A DNA stretch of 63,639 nt from an uncultured Candidatus Saccharibacteria bacterium (GTDB lineage: Bacteria; Patescibacteriota; Doudnabacteria; UBA920; 2-01-FULL-46-14), in NCBI GenBank assembly GCA_964396685.1, contig CAYNFS010000004.1, positions 1-63,639 of the forward strand, given 5' to 3'. Below, piece after piece: positions 56,569-63,639 of this stretch. Below the pieces are notes generated by a model. That model was not told the origin of the DNA. It searched no databases and saw only the letters and a list, made by a program, of their open reading frames with translations. Made by a program: the position numbers and the translations under genes. How positions within the stretch are numbered: the stretch's first letter is position 1; each line of letters begins with the position of its first letter.

Positions 56569-56669
56569 ATCCTCATCCCAATCATTTGTAGAAAAAACTA
56601 GCAGACGCGCGAATTGTCTTATAATCGTATTGTCCACGCGCTGATTCATTTTACCCGAAAAAACCGACA

Positions 56670-56699
56670 AGAGCCAGCGAATATTCGCTGGCTCTCTTT
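56670..56699. terminator. hairpin terminator downstream of glnA
   Basis: perfect palindrome AGAGCCAGCGAATATTCGCTGGCTCT. Confidence 0.6.
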
Positions 56700-56727: not shown

Positions 56728-58203
56728 CTACGCGTCAAAGTACATATAGAACTCGTAAGGATGGGGGCGCAAGCGAATCTCATCCACTTCTTTCTTGCGC
56801 TTGTGAGAAATCCATATGTCAAGAAGATCCCGGGTAAATACATCCCCTTTGAGCAAGAATTCCTGATCCTTCTCAAGCGCGTCTAGGGCTTCCGCAAGGG
56901 AGCCTGGAACAGACCTGATTTTTCCCGCTTTCTCTGGCAAAAGCTCGTAGGTGTTTTCTTCCAAAGGCTCGCCCGGATCAATCCGGTTTTGGACCCCGTC
57001 CAAACCTGCCATGAGCATTGCCGCAAAAGCCAGGTAAGGATTCGCCGTGCAGTCGGGAGAACGAAACTCGATGCGCCTGGCTTTGGGATTGTCCGTGTAC
57101 ATGGGGATTCGGATGGCGGCGGAACGATTACGCGCTGAATAGACAATATTCACCGGAGCTTCGTAGCCTGGCACTAATCGCTTGTAGGAATTAGTGGTCG
57201 GCGCGCAGAAAGCCATGAGCGCGGCCGCGTGCTTGAGAATCCCGCCGATGTAGTATTTGGCAGTCTCGCTCAACAAGGCGTAGCCGCTGCGGTCGTAGAA
57301 AAGATTACTGCCGTTTTTCCAGAGAGACTGGTGTGTGTGCATGCCGGAACCATTGTCGCCAAACAGAGGCTTTGGCATAAAGGTCGCCACCAGATTATTT
57401 TTCTGGGCGATGTTTTTCACAATGTACTTGTAGGTCAAGCACTGATCGCCCATCTTCGTAAGCGGCGCGTAGCGCATGTCTATTTCGCATTGCCCGGCGC
57501 TGGCCACCTCGTGGTGATGCACTTCCACCGCCACACCCGCCTCGATCATGGCCAGAATAATCTCGCTTCTTACGTCCTGCAGTGAATCATGAGGAGGTAC
57601 GGGGAAATAGCCTTCTTTGTGCCGCAATTTGTAACCCAGGTTCGGCCCTCCGTCCCGGCCGGAATTCCAGATCCCCTCTTGGGAATCTACCGCATAGAAG
57701 CCGGCATTGGCGGATTGCCCAAACCGCACGTCATTGAAAAGGAAAAATTCCATCTCCGGCCCCCAATAACTGACGTCCGCAATGCCCGTCTTAACAAGAT
57801 AGTCTTCCGCCTTCTGGGCCACATAACGCGGGTCCCGTGAATAAGGCAGACGGGTCAGAGGATCGTAGATGTTGCAGATAATACTTAGAGTCGGCACTGT
57901 GGGCACCGGATCGACCACGGCAGTGGCGGGATCAAGCACAAGAAGCATGTCTGACTCCTGAATCTCCTGAAAGCCGCGGATGGAGGAACCGTCAAAGCCG
58001 ATTCCTTCCCGCCAGATTGTTGCGCCCGCTTCCAAAAGTTCAGCGGCCGGAATAGAAAAATGCTGCCACAGCCCGGGCAAATCGGCAAATTTTAAATCGA
58101 CGATTTTGATGTTGTGTTTTTTGACCAGAGCCGTCACCTGCTCAATTTCCGCTTTATTGCTCTCAAACAGTTCAACTTTTTTTAGGGTACTTATCAATTC
58201 CAT
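56728..58203 (-). CDS. glnA: glutamine synthetase type I
   Basis: FDGSSI, GPEMEFFLF, HHEVA, FMPKP..GDNGSGMH.H, RNRSA.IRIP, RIEFRSPD; start MELIS, 1 nt after the amtB stop. Confidence 0.97.
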   Translation of the reverse strand: MELISTLKKVELFESNKAEIEQVTALVKKHNIKIVDLKFADLPGLWQHFSIPAAELLEAGATIWREGIGFDGSSIRGFQEIQESDMLLVLDPATAVVDPVPTVPTLSIICNIYDPLTRLPYSRDPRYVAQKAEDYLVKTGIADVSYWGPEMEFFLFNDVRFGQSANAGFYAVDSQEGIWNSGRDGGPNLGYKLRHKEGYFPVPPHDSLQDVRSEIILAMIEAGVAVEVHHHEVASAGQCEIDMRYAPLTKMGDQCLTYKYIVKNIAQKNNLVATFMPKPLFGDNGSGMHTHQSLWKNGSNLFYDRSGYALLSETAKYYIGGILKHAAALMAFCAPTTNSYKRLVPGYEAPVNIVYSARNRSAAIRIPMYTDNPKARRIEFRSPDCTANPYLAFAAMLMAGLDGVQNRIDPGEPLEENTYELLPEKAGKIRSVPGSLAEALDALEKDQEFLLKGDVFTRDLLDIWISHKRKKEVDEIRLRPHPYEFYMYFDA

Positions 58204-58204
58204 G

Positions 58205-59449
58205 TTAGTTTTCTCCCACGGGAATTTCGCTGTAAGCTTTTTCGCCGTGCTGACTAATATCAAGACCGGCTTCTTCTTCCTCGCGGCTCACTCGCAAATC
58301 CATAAACAAACTCACGAGTTTCAGAAGAATATAAGAGCCGAAGAAAGCAAAAGCCGCCACAGCCACAACCGCAACCAGCTGGACAACCAACTGGCCGGGA
58401 TTGCCGTAGAAAAGACCGTTTGCCCCGGCAGGATTAATAGCGGTGCTGGCGAACAAGCCTGTGGCCAATGCGCCCCAGACACCACTTACTCCATGACAGG
58501 CAAACACGTCAAGCGAATCATCTAGACTGGTCCTCGCGCGCCAATTCGCCGCAAGATTGGAAATCACTCCAGCCACCAAACCGATGGCAATTGAAGCCGG
58601 AATACCGACATAGCCTGATGCCGGCGTAATCGCCACCAAGCCGCACACTGCGCCAATCGAAAACCCGACGGCCGAGGGTTTGCCTTTCTTGATCCAATCT
58701 ACAATCATCCAGCTGGTGGCCGCCGCGGCCGCGGCAAGATTAGTTACGACCAGAGCGCTAACCGCCAGAGCATTGGCAGCCAAACTGCTTCCGGCATTGA
58801 ATCCAAACCAGCCAAACCACAAAAGCGCCGCACCTAAAATCACAAAAGGCACGTTGTTGGGCTTAAACTCGGCGACCGGCTCTTTGCCGTTCCGGCGGCC
58901 AATTACCAAAGCCGCCGCTACTGCCGAAAGTCCGGCCGAAATGTGCACCACAGTCCCTCCGGCAAAATCCAGCGCTCCCAACTGCCGCAGCCAACCTCCC
59001 GGATTCCAGACCCAGTGGGCAATCGGCGCGTAAATCAGAGTTGCCCAAAGCACAATAAACATCAGAAGCGAACGAAACTTAATCCGCTCGGCGAAAGCGC
59101 CGATAATCAAGGCCGGAGTGATAGCCGCAAACTTCAGCTGAAAAAAGAAAAAGAGAAGCTCGGGGATAGTGCCGGCATAATCCGCGTTTGGCTCTGCCCC
59201 AACATTTTTGAGGACCACGGCAGACAGATTGCCGAAAAAGCCCTTGATGCTCGGCCCAAAGGCTATACTGTAGCTCCACAGCGCCCAAACCAGGCTGACC
59301 ACGGCAAAGATGGCAAAGCATTGGACAAGGGTCGAGATCAAATTCTTTTTGCGCACGAGTCCGGCGTAAAAAAACCCCAAAGCCGGGGTCATGAGCATCA
59401 CCAGCGCGGAAGCTGCCGAAACCCAGGCAATGTCTCCTGAATCTAGCAT
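58205..59449 (-). CDS. amtB: ammonium transporter
   Basis: FQLKFAAITPALIIGA.AER, DFAGG.VVH, WFGW.GFN.GS, DD.LDVF..HG; start MLDSG. Confidence 0.96.
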   Translation of the reverse strand: MLDSGDIAWVSAASALVMLMTPALGFFYAGLVRKKNLISTLVQCFAIFAVVSLVWALWSYSIAFGPSIKGFFGNLSAVVLKNVGAEPNADYAGTIPELLFFFFQLKFAAITPALIIGAFAERIKFRSLLMFIVLWATLIYAPIAHWVWNPGGWLRQLGALDFAGGTVVHISAGLSAVAAALVIGRRNGKEPVAEFKPNNVPFVILGAALLWFGWFGFNAGSSLAANALAVSALVVTNLAAAAAATSWMIVDWIKKGKPSAVGFSIGAVCGLVAITPASGYVGIPASIAIGLVAGVISNLAANWRARTSLDDSLDVFACHGVSGVWGALATGLFASTAINPAGANGLFYGNPGQLVVQLVAVVAVAAFAFFGSYILLKLVSLFMDLRVSREEEEAGLDISQHGEKAYSEIPVGEN

Positions 59450-59476
59450 AAATCGTGTCTCCCAAAATTTAATAAT

Positions 59477-59541
59477 AAAAAACTTCCTAACCGTCATTGG
59501 CTAAGAAGACCTCTTTGTCTTGTTTCGGCACTTCCTTGTGC
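59477..59541 (-). promoter_or_regulatory. ANTAR-binding dual-hairpin motif overlapping an intrinsic terminator
   Basis: mRNA: GCAC-AAGGAA-GUGC, 6-nt linker, AAGAC-AAAGAG-GUCUU, overlapping terminator CUUCUUAGCC-AAUGAC-GGUUAGGAAG-UUUUUU. Confidence 0.85.
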
Positions 59542-59588
59542 TTAATTTTATTTTACTAGCTTGATATGGCCCGTCAACTGGGGATAAG

Positions 59589-60311
59589 CTAGCGCGCAAT
59601 TTCCTCTGACAAAATAACCGCCTCGGCTACTTCCCGCAAAGATTTGCGGTTATCCATGCTCTTTTTATGAAGCAGTTTCTGGGCCTCGGCTTCACTTAAC
59701 CCCTGCCGTTTCATGATAATCCCCTTGGCTTTCTCCACAATTTTGCGGGTTTCCAGAGTTTGTTTCAGTACTCCGGTTTCCGTAATAAGCCTCGCGTTTT
59801 CAATGGCGCCTCCAACCTGCCGCGCAATAATTTCCAGAAATCTCACTTTTTCCCTGACAAACTTCCTCTTGCGCCGGTATTGGATATTGATTACGCCAAC
59901 CACTTTGTCTTTAAACACGATGGGCAGGGAAAGGAAAGCTTCAAATCTGTCCTCGGGCAAGGCATTAAAAAATTTGAACCTTTCATCTTCGTAGGCCTGG
60001 GACTCCAAAGCAACGGTGCGCTTATGTTCGGCTACCCAGCCGGTAATACCCTCGCCCCTTCTCAAGGTGATTTTTCCCAACATCTCCCGGTGCGGATTTT
60101 GCGAAGCCGCAAGGACTACGTGGTCGTCTTCGACCAAATAAATAAAACAGGAATCAGATTTGCTGTACCCCTGGACAACGCCGATAATGGAGGAAAGCAC
60201 TTTTTGCAAATCCCAATTATAGCTGATTGTCTCGGCGATCTCCCGCAGAATCTCAAGCTCGGTTTCTTTATTCTTAAGCTTGGCCTTGTAGTAACCAATA
60301 TCTTTTCTCAT
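59589..60311 (-). CDS. GAF-ANTAR RNA-binding antiterminator
   Basis: GAF 'GEGITGWVA...LSLPI...VVGVINIQ'; ANTAR 'LETRKIVEKAKGIIM...SE.EA...L...SMD.R.SLREVAE'; start MRKDI. Confidence 0.92.
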   Translation of the reverse strand: MRKDIGYYKAKLKNKETELEILREIAETISYNWDLQKVLSSIIGVVQGYSKSDSCFIYLVEDDHVVLAASQNPHREMLGKITLRRGEGITGWVAEHKRTVALESQAYEDERFKFFNALPEDRFEAFLSLPIVFKDKVVGVINIQYRRKRKFVREKVRFLEIIARQVGGAIENARLITETGVLKQTLETRKIVEKAKGIIMKRQGLSEAEAQKLLHKKSMDNRKSLREVAEAVILSEEIAR

Positions 60312-60318
60312 ATCAATA

Positions 60319-60405
60319 CGGTGGGGGTGGGATTTGAACCCACGGTACTCTTGCGAGCACACCTGATTTCGAGTCAGGCCGATTAAACCACTCTCGCACC
60401 CCACC
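60319..60405 (-). tRNA. tRNA-Ser(CGA)
   Basis: cloverleaf with long variable arm; anticodon arm CCTGA-CT CGA AA-TCAGG; CCA not encoded. Confidence 0.95.
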
Positions 60406-61051
60406 TCTCATTCATTATATCTTTTACTGTTTGATAAGTCATCCGGTGGATTTCGCAAGGGCCGTATCGCAATAAATTTTTTCTGTGAAAATCCGTATCA
60501 TAACCTTTGTGTTTTTCAAATCCATATGCAGGAAATTTCTGCGCATAATTTTTCATCAAATCATCGCGGTATACTTTAGCCAAAATTGAAGCTGCCGCGA
60601 TTGAAAGCACCAGAGCGTCCCCGTCAACAATTGTCACTTGCCTGATCTTAAATCTCAAATCATAAATCTTAAATCTCCCATCTATCAAAGCAACCTCTGG
60701 GATTATTTTCATATTCTCCACGGCTCGCCGCATCGCGAGCAAAGTCGCCTCGCGGATATTCAGCTCATCAATTTCTTTATGGCTAGCAAGCCCAATCCCG
60801 TAATCATCCGCATTTTGCTTTATGAAATCAATCATGGATTCCCGCTTTCGCGCGGACAAGATTTTGGAATCTCTTACCCCATACCACCACTTGGTCTTGC
60901 TCCTGTAGCGGCCAATTTTTTCTGGATTTAAAATCACCGCCGCCGAGACCACAGGACCAGCCAGGGGTGCCACTCCCACTTCGTCAATTCCGGCAATCAG
61001 GCGGTAGTTTGGCAAAAGTTTGGTTTCAAACGTGTAGGTTGGGGTGATCAT
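60383..61051 (-). CDS. rnhB: ribonuclease HII
   Basis: GIDEVG..PLAGPV, DSK, DG, SIAAASILAKV.RD, KGY, HR.TY. Confidence 0.95.
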   Translation of the reverse strand: MITPTYTFETKLLPNYRLIAGIDEVGVAPLAGPVVSAAVILNPEKIGRYRSKTKWWYGVRDSKILSARKRESMIDFIKQNADDYGIGLASHKEIDELNIREATLLAMRRAVENMKIIPEVALIDGRFKIYDLRFKIRQVTIVDGDALVLSIAAASILAKVYRDDLMKNYAQKFPAYGFEKHKGYDTDFHRKNLLRYGPCEIHRMTYQTVKDIMNERWGARVV

Positions 61052-61573: not shown

Positions 61574-61647
<74 letters not shown>

Positions 61648-61653
61648 TTTTAT

Positions 61654-61725
61654 GCCCCCGTAGTTCAATGGACAGAACAAGAGACTCCTAAGCTCTGGAT
61701 GGCCGTTCGATTCGGCCCGGGGGTA
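61654..61725 (+). tRNA. tRNA-Arg(CCT)
   Basis: acceptor GCCCCCG/CGGGGGT; loop CT CCT AA; TTCGATT T-loop. Confidence 0.9.
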
Positions 61726-61728
61726 AAA

Positions 61729-61766
61729 CGGGGATTGGCGCGCGGTAGCGCGTTTATCCTGCCCCG
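61729..61766 (+). pseudogene. internally deleted tRNA-Pro-like remnant
   Basis: CGGGG...GGCGC..GGTAGCGCG...ATCCTG-CCCCG; anticodon arm and T-loop missing. Confidence 0.55.
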
Positions 61767-61819
61767 TTAGATATTATTGCGCTGGAATGTTGCTATTATA
61801 TAGTGTCTTTCGTTTTAGT

Positions 61820-61865
61820 CGGGGTATTGTAGTATACCGGCAGTACGCGCGTTCATCCCGCACGA
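61820..61865 (+). pseudogene. internally deleted tRNA-Pro-like remnant
   Basis: shares TAGTATACCGG.AGTACGC.CG with the tRNA-Pro at 61894. Confidence 0.6.
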
Positions 61866-61893
61866 ATTTCAAAATGATTCATACCATGCTTCC

Positions 61894-61964
61894 CGGGGCA
61901 TAGTATACCGGAAGTACGCACGCTTCGGGTGCGTGAAGACTGGGTTCAATTCCCAGTGCCCCGA
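61894..61964 (+). tRNA. tRNA-Pro(CGG)
   Basis: anticodon arm CACGC-TT CGG GT-GCGTG; acceptor CGGGGCA/TGCCCCG. Confidence 0.92.
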
Positions 61965-62001
61965 TTGACAATCAAATAGAACATTGCTAAAAGAAAATAA
62001 T

Positions 62002-62078
62002 GCCGCGGTAGCTCAGTGGTTTAGAGCGCTGCCCTGAAGAGGCAGGCGTCGGGTGTTCGATTCACCCCCGCGGCACCA
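62002..62078 (+). tRNA. tRNA-Phe(GAA)
   Basis: anticodon arm CTGCC-CT GAA GA-GGCAG; CCA encoded. Confidence 0.95.
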
Positions 62079-62079
62079 T

Positions 62080-62151
62080 GCGGGTGTCGTATAACGGCTA
62101 TTATGCAACCTTGCCAAGGTTGAGAAGGGGGTTCGACTCCCCTCACCCGCT
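62080..62151 (+). tRNA. tRNA-Gly(GCC)
   Basis: anticodon arm CAACC-TT GCC AA-GGTTG; U discriminator. Confidence 0.95.
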
Positions 62152-62240
62152 TTCTTGGGAAACGGAAGACGGGTGAACAACGCCCACACAACATAGAGGG
62201 CGAGTGGCGGAACTAGGGATATTTACCCCGCATAGTTGAT

Positions 62241-62327
62241 GCCCGGGTGGCGGAATCGGTATACGCAACGGACTTAAAATCCGTGACCCGAAAGGGTTTG
62301 TGGGTTCGAGTCCCACCCCGGGCACCA
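62241..62327 (+). tRNA. tRNA-Leu(TAA)
   Basis: anticodon arm ACGGA-CT TAA AA-TCCGT; long variable arm; CCA encoded. Confidence 0.95.
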
Positions 62328-63639
62328 CGTAGGAAAAGTCAATGCCTCGCGGCGCGTTCCGCGCCGCTCGGCGACCAAATTGTACGGAGTTTTCAGGGCA
62401 AAAAGAAATTCCCGATTCCGTAAAATATGGTTCGAGCCGATGTTTTTCAGAAATGTTGGCAATTCAGAAAGATTATCTGTCTGTATGAGATTTGCGGCTT
62501 GATTAAGGGATAAAACGAACTCGCGAGCCGGTTCGAGCCAAGACAACCCTTTTGTCTCGAAGTCGGTGATTTTCTCATTCAACGACATTTTTTGAGACAA
62601 CAAACTCTGTTTTTTGGCGGCGTATTCCTCTGTGGATAAAGCGTCTGCTAAATAGACATCGAGTAGTTTTGATAACTTTGTTTCCACGCTCGCTAATTGC
62701 TCTTTGAAATTTACCACCTCACTTTGCGCTTGTTGTTTTGCTTGCGTTTCTTCCGTATCCAACGCCGCCAAAACCTTCTCGGTGTCTTGGCTCGATAAAG
62801 AAACTTTTTGAAGAAAACTTTTTATTTGCTCTGCTAATGCTTCTTCTCTTAAATAGTGCTTTTCTTGGCATAAACCTTTTTTCTTGGTGCAACGATAATA
62901 GTTATGTCCTTTTTGTTGTTCTCCGGTAATGGAGCAACCACATGAGGCACATTTAAGTAAGCCAAGAAAAGCAAAATAATGTTTTCTTACTTCCTGAACT
63001 TTGCCGCGTTTCACCATAACCTCTTGGCATTTATCAAAAAGTTTCTTTGAGATTAACGGCTCGTGCCGTCCATCAAAAATTTCCCCCTTCCATTTCATCA
63101 GACCCAAGTAGAAAATATTTTGTAGATTTTTTTGTATGTTGGCGATAACCAATGGCTTACCGAGATTGCCGACCAAACCATTTTCCTTACACCAATTTGC
63201 GAGAGAATGAAGCGTATATGCTCCGGTGGCATACATTTCAAACATTTTGCGAACTTTCGGTGCTTTCTCGCTATCAACATCAATCCCGCGTGTCTTGGCG
63301 TTATTTAGATAGCCAACTGGAGCCCAGCCGGGCCAAGTGCCGTTGCGTATTTTTTGGCGTAGTCCACGCTTCACATTCTCACGTAAATTATCTACAAAAT
63401 ATTTGCTCTGCCCGAAAGCAATGTTCAGCATAAACAAACCTTGCGGTGTCGCTTCAAACCAAAAGGTGGGAAATTTAAGGGACTTAATCAAGCCACGATC
63501 AACAAAATAGATAATCTTTCCGCCGTCTACAGAGTTTCTAGCCAATCTATCGGGGTGCCATGAGATTATTCCATCTGCCTTTCCCGATTCGAGAATTGCC
63601 AACATTTCTGCGAATTTAATTCGGCCAGGTTCTTTGGCA
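62274..63639 (-). mobile_element. large serine recombinase (5' end outside the window), boundary of an element integrated at tRNA-Leu
   Basis: 'W..DRLARN' resolvase motif, recombinase domain, C..CG...YY.C zinc ribbon, coiled coil; C-terminus reads antisense into the tRNA. Confidence 0.88.

Follow-up and report, generated by a model that had tools for sequence, protein, structure and literature searches.

How can a bacterium of the Candidate Phyla Radiation (CPR), a group of mostly uncultured organisms with few regulators, adjust its ammonium assimilation? This question is raised by a contig assigned to the Doudnabacteria (CAYNFS010000004.1), of which positions 1 to 63,639 were analyzed. This whole stretch of 63,639 nt is called the window in the following, and all coordinates are positions in it. 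On its minus strand, a gene encoding a regulator composed of a GAF and an ANTAR domain is followed by a short leader RNA and by the genes amtB, encoding an ammonium transporter, and glnA, encoding a type I glutamine synthetase, the whole unit lying on this strand. Our analysis suggests with good confidence that amtB-glnA, an operon for ammonium assimilation, is controlled by regulator and leader in the manner of a one-component ANTAR antitermination switch. The parts of this unit, their layout, conservation and covariation, the linkage to amtB and glnA and the affinities of both protein domains were computed directly.

ANTAR elements were predicted already in 2012 upstream of genes encoding PII, ammonium transporters and glutamine synthetase, at a time when no PAS- or GAF-ANTAR protein was characterized (PMC3369931). 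In 2020, NasR and PAL were given as the only characterized one-component ANTAR proteins (PMC7496416), and GAF-ANTAR proteins appear in the ANTAR literature without assigned ligand, RNA target or regulon (PMC3369931; PMC7496416). The locus described here is a test case that is both complete and very small, consisting of a protein of 240 amino acids (aa), a leader of about 65 nt and an obvious physiological output. It leads to specific candidate ligands, derived from the affinity of the GAF domain to those of PtsP and NifA, and to a concrete and testable picture of how ammonium assimilation might be adjusted in these bacteria.

The leader RNA and its terminator

The regulator gene and amtB are separated by an intergenic stretch of 139 nt. 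For this stretch, a sequence-only reading of the DNA had described two hairpins, P1 and P2, connected by a 6-nt linker, and all of these elements are found at the claimed places on the minus strand (Table 1). Both loops are hexamers with an adenine in position 1 and a guanine in position 4 (A1/G4), and both are closed by a C-G pair. An intrinsic terminator of 10 bp followed by a U6 tract, which was claimed to share the trinucleotide CUU with the 3' arm of P2, was recovered from the sequence as well as by a terminator scan: its first three nucleotides (C59508, U59507 and U59506) are the last three nucleotides of the P2 3' arm, and its stem by itself has a folding energy of -12.6 kcal/mol. The leader folds more stably than its shuffles (z = -2.9). 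Its transcript is predicted to start at about 59544-59542, directly before P1, with 8 nt lying between the end of the -10 element of a sigma70-like promoter (59550) and P1. The U tract is followed by 27 nt up to the amtB ATG, which include the ribosome-binding site. All sequence-level features used by Ramesh et al. (2012) to recognize ANTAR targets, i.e., tandem hexaloops, A1/G4, the overlap with a terminator and an ANTAR gene in the genome, are present here.

Dual hairpins with A1/G4 hexaloops alone are not rare, since the window contains three of them compared to 4.4 +/- 2.2 in 200 dinucleotide shuffles. The dual hairpin together with an overlapping terminator is expected 0.04 times per window and was present in 8 of the 200 shuffles. 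More specific are covariance models built from related leaders. A MAFFT alignment of all 31 leaders misplaced P1 in about 10 rows, and the first model (R1) was therefore seeded on 18 well-aligned leaders, the remaining ones being aligned by the model; a second model (R2) was built from 17 leaders of other genomes with the window excluded. R2 matches positions 59544..59505 of the window with 40.6 bits and an E-value of about 6e-8, which is rough, as are all E-values of these models, due to a short calibration; no other match above 8 bits was found by R2 in the window. When the window was scanned with R1 together with 544 kb of CPR-type loci, 47 matches resulted, 46 of which do not belong to the window; a single match lies on the strand opposite to the regulator. 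In 734 kb of Acidobacteriota-type loci, R1 yielded only two weak matches and none that was significant. Judged from these sequence comparisons, the leader motif is not a product of chance.

Conservation of the leader in related loci

The regulator has 4554 homologues at E<=1e-10, and among the best 120 matches listed, the named homologues of about 240 aa belong to Paceibacterota, Uhrbacteria, Moranbacteria and the "Patescibacteria group." From these homologues 177 related loci were gathered, referred to by labels beginning with L, and searched by a simple pattern scan and subsequently by R1. Among the CPR-type loci, either glnA or amtB nearly always follows the regulator gene. A lack of conservation in orthologous leaders had been named beforehand as a result that would speak against the switch. 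The comparison was run and revealed that the layout of promoter, dual hexaloop and overlapping terminator recurs in 37 leaders, 34 of which precede amtB (7) or glnA (27) at a distance of 13-438 nt. In L166 and L169 the order regulator-amtB-glnA is the same as in the window. Moreover, the element stays with glnA where the regulator gene is not adjacent: in L174 a TPR gene lies between regulator and glnA, in L005 glnA is 2.3 kb away from the regulator, and in L003 glnA precedes it. The related loci of Acidobacteriota, about 100 in number and encoding regulators with 40-47% identity, served as a negative control; in these glnA was never found immediately downstream, and a few have amtB or a PII gene within 5 kb.

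The pairing of the hairpins was analyzed over 40 distinct leaders, the loops over 35 and the terminators and promoters over 37. P1 shows compensatory changes at five of its six modelled pairs; at pair 6-25, A-U occurs 28 times, G-C eight times and U-A once. Of all pair cells 88% are standard pairs, compared to 33-44% if the partners are slid by 1-3 columns, and none of 500 shuffles reaches the observed value. The inner core of P2, GAC/GUC, does not vary between the aligned leaders (39-40 of 40). The consensus of the loops is A-A-N-G-R-N for loop 1 and A-A-W-G-A-N for loop 2. G4 is invariant in both loops (35/35), 34 of 35 first loops and 32 of 35 second loops have A1, A5 of loop 2 is found in 30 of 35, and the closing C-G pair occurs without exception in both (35/35). 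The linker between P1 and P2 varies from 0 to 17 nt, with one linker of 35 nt.

A hairpin followed by a U-run, the 5' arm of which starts inside P2, is present in 35 of the 37 leaders, in 34 with an overlap of at least 2 nt; across the family the overlap ranges from 1 to 10 nt with a mode of 5 nt, the window having 3 nt. This conserved overlap bears on the idea that translation or RNA stability, and not termination, is the target of the ANTAR protein, similar to what is described for mycobacterial ANTAR RNAs. Translational repression by complexes of ANTAR proteins and RNA in actinobacteria is reported in a preprint (bioRxiv 10.1101/660928). However, P2 of the window overlaps the terminator and not the ribosome-binding site, which is located about 43 nt 3' of P2, and the retention of a P2-overlapping hairpin with U-run throughout the family points to termination as the regulated step. 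We therefore judge an action on translation or stability to be very unlikely and favor antitermination.

The sequence-only reading had also pointed out that the terminator loop, AAUGAC, fits the A1/G4 pattern itself. This is correct for the window, but it does not extend to the family, as only three of 35 related terminators carry such a loop, and the A1/G4 hexaloop on the terminator of the window is probably incidental. In principle, the protein could bind P1 and this terminator loop, stabilize the terminator and promote termination, and three of the seven terminators with hexaloops in the family would offer a suitable loop. The scarcity of A1/G4 loops on terminators, while G4 and the closing pair of P2 are invariant, argues against this. 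Moreover, the characterized ANTAR proteins all act by antitermination (PMC3369931; PMC8934654), and termination promoted by the regulator hardly deserves any weight.

Finally, 28 of the 37 leaders have a promoter scoring at least 9/12 in the 75 nt ahead of the motif, compared to 11.5% of random windows. In most cases 4-10 nt separate the end of its -10 element from the motif, including leaders whose -35 element thereby falls inside the end of the regulator gene. The conservation of a promoter right before the motif suggests that the leader is a transcription unit of its own, which starts essentially at P1. This is difficult to reconcile with an explanation by which the hairpins are incidental and 59508..59477 simply is the terminator of the regulator gene, amtB-glnA being expressed independently. 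Such an explanation can draw on the fact that dual A1/G4 hexaloops arise about four times per window by chance and that the terminator does sit downstream of the regulator gene. However, the conserved promoter is placed upstream of P1 and not past the terminator, the U tract and the amtB ATG are no more than 27 nt apart, a stretch that includes the ribosome-binding site, and the element remains with glnA when the regulator is encoded elsewhere (L003, L005 and L174). Together with the conservation, the covariation and the match of the window-free model, these comparative data largely refute incidental hairpins, which we consider extremely improbable.

The regulator protein

The gene upstream of the leader was predicted to encode a GAF and an ANTAR domain, and the corresponding Pfam matches are present in the open reading frame (ORF) 60311..59589. 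The ANTAR domain scores 72 bits on PF03861, with a gathering threshold of 27.3, and PDB matches align this part of the protein to Rv1626, EutV and NasR. An AlphaFold (AF2) model with a predicted local distance difference test (pLDDT) value of 87.5 consists of an N-terminal helix, the GAF fold and the ANTAR bundle. One unbroken helix (residues 153-203) runs from the GAF domain into the ANTAR bundle, followed by the helices 207-221 and 225-239; the long helix is the kind of signaling helix through which EutV dimerizes.

In the structure of EutV, RNA is contacted by Lys143, Tyr164, Arg168, Met172, Asn173, Arg175 and Arg177 (PMC8934654). Of these contacts, Lys143 is kept as K190, the methionine plugging the hexaloop as M219 and Arg175 as R222, and both M219 and R222 are invariant in an alignment of 20 sequences. 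Conserved lysines (K216, K217 and K223) are located beside the positions at which other contacts are replaced.

The candidate signal and the relation to PII

The nearest relatives of the GAF domain are those of sensors of nitrogen status. A phmmer search of the PDB found a Geobacter GAF domain (3e0y, 3.5e-24), the GAF domains of PtsP (3ci6, 2e-18; 3trc, 2.6e-14) and then NifA-like Nlh1; the best NCBIfam matches are PtsP (4.9e-21) and NifA (5e-15), confined to the N-terminal GAF part. By Foldseek, the closest fold is that of the PtsP GAF domain 3ci6, with a template modeling (TM) score of 0.88 and a root-mean-square deviation of 1.9 A; the matches did not include a structure of a PtsP GAF domain with bound ligand. 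In alignments, the motifs DxCxIYL, EG(L/I)xGxV, (E/D)RF and GV(I/L)xxQ are shared with the GAF domains of PtsP and NifA. The GAF domain of NifA responds to 2-oxoglutarate. For EI-Ntr (PtsP), it was shown that the GAF domain binds glutamine, resulting in an inhibition of autophosphorylation in E. coli, S. meliloti and C. crescentus (PMC4848567). A GAF domain of the PtsP(EI-Ntr)/NifA type makes nitrogen status the likely input, and from this homology glutamine and/or 2-oxoglutarate are the candidate signals of the regulator. The earlier suggestion of these two ligands thereby gains homology support, the binding itself being a prediction; the chances of having named the right ligand and the right sign of the response are roughly even.

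Alternatively, the RNA mechanism might be the same and the GAF domain might sense another input, such as a cyclic nucleotide, the redox state or another metabolite, or it might only dimerize while a partner such as PII does the signaling. GAF domains bind many ligands, and further fold matches include the cAMP-bound GAF domain of Lcd1, the GAF domains of PDEs and fRMsr. Moreover, the operon that the regulator would control in the close relative L172 includes a gene for PII, making an interaction of PII and regulator conceivable. However, the best matches in sequence as well as in fold are the GAF domains of PtsP and NifA, both sensors of nitrogen status, and the regulated genes comprise amtB, glnA, glnK and an amino-acid permease gene and, in relatives, genes linked to glutamate synthase (GOGAT) and for a glutamine-dependent NAD synthase. 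In addition, the operons of the window, L166 and L169 are without a PII gene. A different input is considered less probable, and glutamine and/or 2-oxoglutarate remain our candidates.

The sequence-only reading had furthermore proposed that the switch replaces the control by PII/Ntr, and this found no support. No PII-like sequence was found in the 63.6-kb window at E<=10, amtB being followed by glnA and not by glnK, but the window is only part of a genome. In L172 (4281-6514) and L173, a regulator of 62% identity and the same leader precede amtB and glnK, which encodes PII. Judged from this gene content, the GAF-ANTAR switch coexists with PII in the relative L172.

The proposed mechanism and the points against it

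The core of the sequence-only reading, a dual-hexaloop antiterminator competing with a terminator and an adjacent GAF-ANTAR protein that would gate amtB-glnA, was supported by all in silico tests performed. RNA binding by the regulator, read-through, ligand and sign of the response are those steps of the following model that we infer. Transcription would start at about 59543, from a sigma70-type promoter that looks constitutive and closely follows the regulator gene, and the first 65 nt or so of the RNA would contain P1, then P2 and then the terminator. By default, the full 10-bp terminator would form against U6, and the polymerase would stop before amtB. The active regulator, probably a dimer, would engage the A1/G4 hexaloops with its ANTAR domains, first that of P1 and subsequently that of P2; a successive binding of its two hairpins was also proposed for EutV (PMC8934654). 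A closed P2 would remove the three bottom pairs of the terminator abutting the U tract. The leftover stem of 7 bp, separated from the U tract by three unpaired nucleotides, should be a poor terminator according to general rules of intrinsic termination, and this would allow read-through into amtB-glnA. By analogy with EI-Ntr, glutamine would switch RNA binding off and/or 2-oxoglutarate would switch it on, with the outcome that amtB and glnA would be made under nitrogen limitation.

Several points weigh against this model. All support is computational. In terms of energy, P1 and P2 together with the 7-bp stem (-16.5 kcal/mol) are nearly isoenergetic with P1 and the full terminator (-17.4 kcal/mol). 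P2 and terminator overlap by only 3 nt in the window, and their mutual exclusion is partial in energy terms. With such a small overlap and nearly equal energies, antitermination would have to rest on protein binding and on the rule that the stem must abut the U tract. On the side of the protein, four of the seven RNA-contact positions of EutV that were compared differ (Tyr164 to Gln211, Arg168 to His215, Asn173 to Asp220 and Arg177 to Ser224), and with respect to the ligand, the identity of the GAF domain to the PtsP and NifA matches amounts to only 26-34%, the ligands of GAF domains being diverse. No Rfam family matches the leader: at gathering thresholds only tRNAs were found in the window, and a permissive search of 59300-59700 yielded narK RNA (RF03032) with 12.4 bits (E = 8), compared to a gathering threshold of 43.2, and a spurious match to a long non-coding RNA (lncRNA); glutamine riboswitch families were not found in this region even at E<=10. 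Furthermore, the loci were gathered via the regulator gene, and the co-occurrence of RNA and protein is thus not independent. Finally, the leaders are related by descent, which inflates the statistics based on shuffles. The controls with slid partners, however, keep this relatedness and still fail.

Organization of the locus and its surroundings

The features of the locus are compiled in Table 1. The placement of amtB and glnA downstream of the switch, as had been claimed, is corroborated by the Pfam and NCBIfam matches of both proteins. The glnA ATG lies 1 nt past the amtB stop codon. For both, the start codons of the mechanical ORF call were rejected: ATG 59497 for amtB lies inside the terminator loop, and ATG 59449 with its GGGAG ribosome-binding site is preferred; TTG 58263 for glnA overlaps amtB, and ATG 58203 is preferred.

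Table 1. Features of the regulator-leader-amtB-glnA locus in order of transcription (coordinates refer to the window).
Feature	Coordinates	Strand	Basis or remark
tRNA-Ser(CGA)	60405..60319	-	first in transcription order
GAF-ANTAR regulator gene, 240 aa	60311..59589	-	ATG 60311; stop TAG 59591..59589
GAF domain, residues 34-171	60212..59799	-	Pfam GAF_2, 7e-19
ANTAR domain, residues 182-233	59768..59613	-	Pfam ANTAR, 3e-20
Sigma70-like promoter TTGACG-16 nt-TAAAAT	-35 59577..59572; -10 59555..59550	-	scan match 10/12
P1 hairpin GCAC[AAGGAA]GUGC, 4 bp	59541..59528	-	sequence and fold
Linker CGAAAC between P1 and P2, 6 nt	59527..59522	-	sequence
P2 hairpin AAGAC[AAAGAG]GUCUU, 5 bp, putative antiterminator element	59521..59506	-	sequence
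Intrinsic terminator CUUCUUAGCC[AAUGAC]GGUUAGGAAG, 10 bp including two G-U	59508..59483	-	terminator scan
U6 tract of the leader terminator	59482..59477	-	sequence and terminator scan
Shine-Dalgarno sequence GGGAG	59463..59459	-	9 nt ahead of the amtB ATG
amtB, 414 aa, first regulated gene	59449..58205	-	Pfam Ammonium_transp, 6e-126; NCBIfam TIGR00836 above cutoff
glnA, 491 aa, type I glutamine synthetase	58203..56728	-	Pfam Gln-synt_N and Gln-synt_C; TIGR00653, 658 bits, above cutoff
Strong terminator ending the amtB-glnA unit, 12 bp, 7 G-C	56696..56669	-	terminator scan

Upstream of the regulator gene, tRNA-Ser(CGA) ends 7 nt ahead of the regulator ATG without a Shine-Dalgarno sequence in between, and a promoter-like sequence, ATGACT-17-TATAAT, is located just upstream of the tRNA gene (60414-60442). 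The tRNA and the regulator gene may share a transcript, processing of which would leave a nearly leaderless mRNA for translation of the regulator. The tRNA was dismissed as a component of the system, as the regulator gene is without an adjoining tRNA in 33 of 33 related loci. Further upstream, six tRNA genes are clustered on the plus strand (61574-62327), and an ORF for a large serine recombinase with Resolvase, Recombinase and Zn_ribbon_recom domains is located on the minus strand (62274-63605), its 3' end overlapping tRNA-Leu(UAA). Cluster and recombinase may represent an integrated element at the edge of the window.

The best relatives of GlnA reach only 73% identity, and those that are named come from Omnitrophica, Elusimicrobia, Firestonebacteria, Syntrophales and even archaeal bins; as a taxonomic marker GlnA was uninformative. 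FtsK of the window is identical to a protein carrying the name Candidatus Doudnabacteria at NCBI, which yielded the assignment to this group and agrees with an origin from CPR. The GlnA matches suggest that several of these GlnA relatives share contigs with GAF-(GAF-)ANTAR proteins, and there are hints that regulator and glnA travel together between phyla. The C-terminal region of GlnA (about 56880-56900) reads NTYELLPE, which we take to resemble the adenylylation-site motif NLYDLPPE of E. coli glutamine synthetase; glnE is not visible in the window.

Variants of the arrangement in relatives

Among the leaders, a sub-class comprising L002, L004, L008, L010, L085, L087 and L170 carries the P2 loop AAAGAC (AAAGGC in L170 and GAAGAC in L002). 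In most of these leaders the 3' arm of the terminator, GACGCC followed by U's, pairs with the loop and the 3' arm of P2 (AAAGACGUC), and the overlap amounts to 6-8 nt compared to 3-5 nt in the GUCUUC...GAAGA type, to which the window belongs.

Other variants concern the genes next to the leader. In L162 (4744-6454) and L163, an amino-acid permease gene takes the place of amtB or glnA downstream of a regulator of 59% identity; the motif match is weaker in these loci (E 0.17), and no clear terminator was found by the procedure used. In L009 (4635-5669), the motif and a terminator, AGGAC[AAAGAC]GUCUU..., are located upstream of an ORF of 77 aa that is followed by the regulator gene, an arrangement that looks like autoregulation. 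In L013 (4255-5660), a single leader and glnA are preceded by a tandem of GAF-ANTAR genes, the products of which are paralogues sharing 46% and 49% identity with the protein of the window.

Two loci contain larger relatives of 410 aa with the domain order GAF-GAF-ANTAR. In L175 (1590-1655, 4843-4925 and 6390-6436), where the regulator is named Elusimicrobia, its gene is found beside genes for Glu_synthase and NADH-oxidoreductase proteins, and AAGAC[AUUGAU]GUCUUC with an overlapping terminator lies just upstream of the regulator gene, two further matches being present in the locus. In L176 (6265-6460), where the regulator is named Latescibacteria, a P2-type element is present, the regulator gene is followed by a gene for a glutamine-dependent NAD synthase, and amtB is about 4 kb away. 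A restriction of the system to CPR was rejected, since these relatives, carrying the same P2-type element, adjoin nitrogen genes outside CPR.

Tentatively, a wider reading may be formulated, which we regard as possible though clearly less probable than the switch at the locus itself. GAF-ANTAR and GAF-GAF-ANTAR proteins of the PtsP type, together with leaders of the type C-[AANGNN]-G / GAC-hexaloop-GUC, might form a widespread one-component nitrogen sensor, which would directly read glutamine and/or 2-oxoglutarate and switch ammonium-assimilation genes by antitermination, i.e., amtB, glnA, glnK, GOGAT-linked genes and amino-acid permease genes. Such a sensor might be the main or the only transcriptional nitrogen control in reduced CPR genomes such as that of the present member of the Doudnabacteria. 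Its range might cover CPR as well as Elusimicrobia-, Latescibacteria- and possibly Omnitrophica-type genomes, as indicated by single loci or protein names. If the prediction of the ligand is true, the pair of regulator and leader could serve as a compact expression switch responsive to glutamine/2-oxoglutarate.

Comparison with known systems

The type of mechanism and its link to nitrogen genes are already known. The reference system for ANTAR proteins consists of EutV/EutW and the eut leaders of Enterococcus faecalis (PMC3369931; PMC8934654). These leaders have in common with the leader described here the pair of A1/G4 hexaloops and the overlap of the P2 3' arm with the 5' arm of the terminator. 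EutV and the regulator share the three-helix ANTAR domain reached via a long helix, and the methionine plugging the loop. However, EutV is a phosphorylated REC-ANTAR response regulator that works with a kinase, in contrast to the direct fusion of a GAF domain in the present case. The eut targets are ethanolamine genes instead of amtB-glnA, and several of the residues contacting the RNA differ. Moreover, the core of the P2 stem is invariant in sequence here (GAC/GUC), whereas in the EutV structure the stem is contacted only via its backbone (PMC8934654).

Another related system is NasR of Klebsiella oxytoca, a NIT-ANTAR protein acting on the nasF leader. Both are one-component antiterminators encoded just upstream of the nitrogen operon they target, the regulator described here by prediction, and a ligand-sensing domain gates the RNA binding of ANTAR in NasR and would do so in the regulator. 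The sensor of NasR is a NIT domain that binds nitrate/nitrite, and its target is nitrate assimilation, in contrast to the GAF domain and the ammonium-assimilation genes of the window.

With respect to the target genes, GnfR of Geobacter sulfurreducens, a REC-ANTAR protein, controls nif genes and glnK-amtB (PMC2995071), and NitR of Clostridium saccharobutylicum, encoded in glnA-nitR-gltAB, induces the genes for glutamine synthetase and glutamate synthase (GS/GOGAT; PMC6316151). ANTAR control of glnA and of amtB thus has experimental precedent, both proteins being antiterminators that induce GS/GOGAT genes or glnK-amtB under nitrogen limitation. GnfR is a two-component response regulator, and a NitR-like protein of Clostridium thermocellum is annotated as receiver plus ANTAR, in contrast to the fused GAF domain found here. 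Their input is phosphorylation or an unknown signal, and their hosts also have layers of the PII/Ntr type.

The same type of GAF domain is used by PtsP (EI-Ntr) and NifA for other outputs, i.e., a phosphoenolpyruvate (PEP)-phosphotransferase and a sigma54 AAA+ activator, respectively, instead of ANTAR. As an RNA, narK RNA (RF03032) spans the leader in a weak alignment, at the 3' end of which the P2 sequence GACAAAGAnGUC is matched; this match is below threshold and the leader is not a member of that family. In the literature searched, no published link of ANTAR to Patescibacteria/CPR was found; the four papers in which both terms occur are microbiome studies, and their titles do not point to ANTAR regulators. 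New compared to the known systems are the fused GAF sensor of the PtsP type, the leader family with its invariant GAC/GUC core of P2, and the presence of both in CPR.

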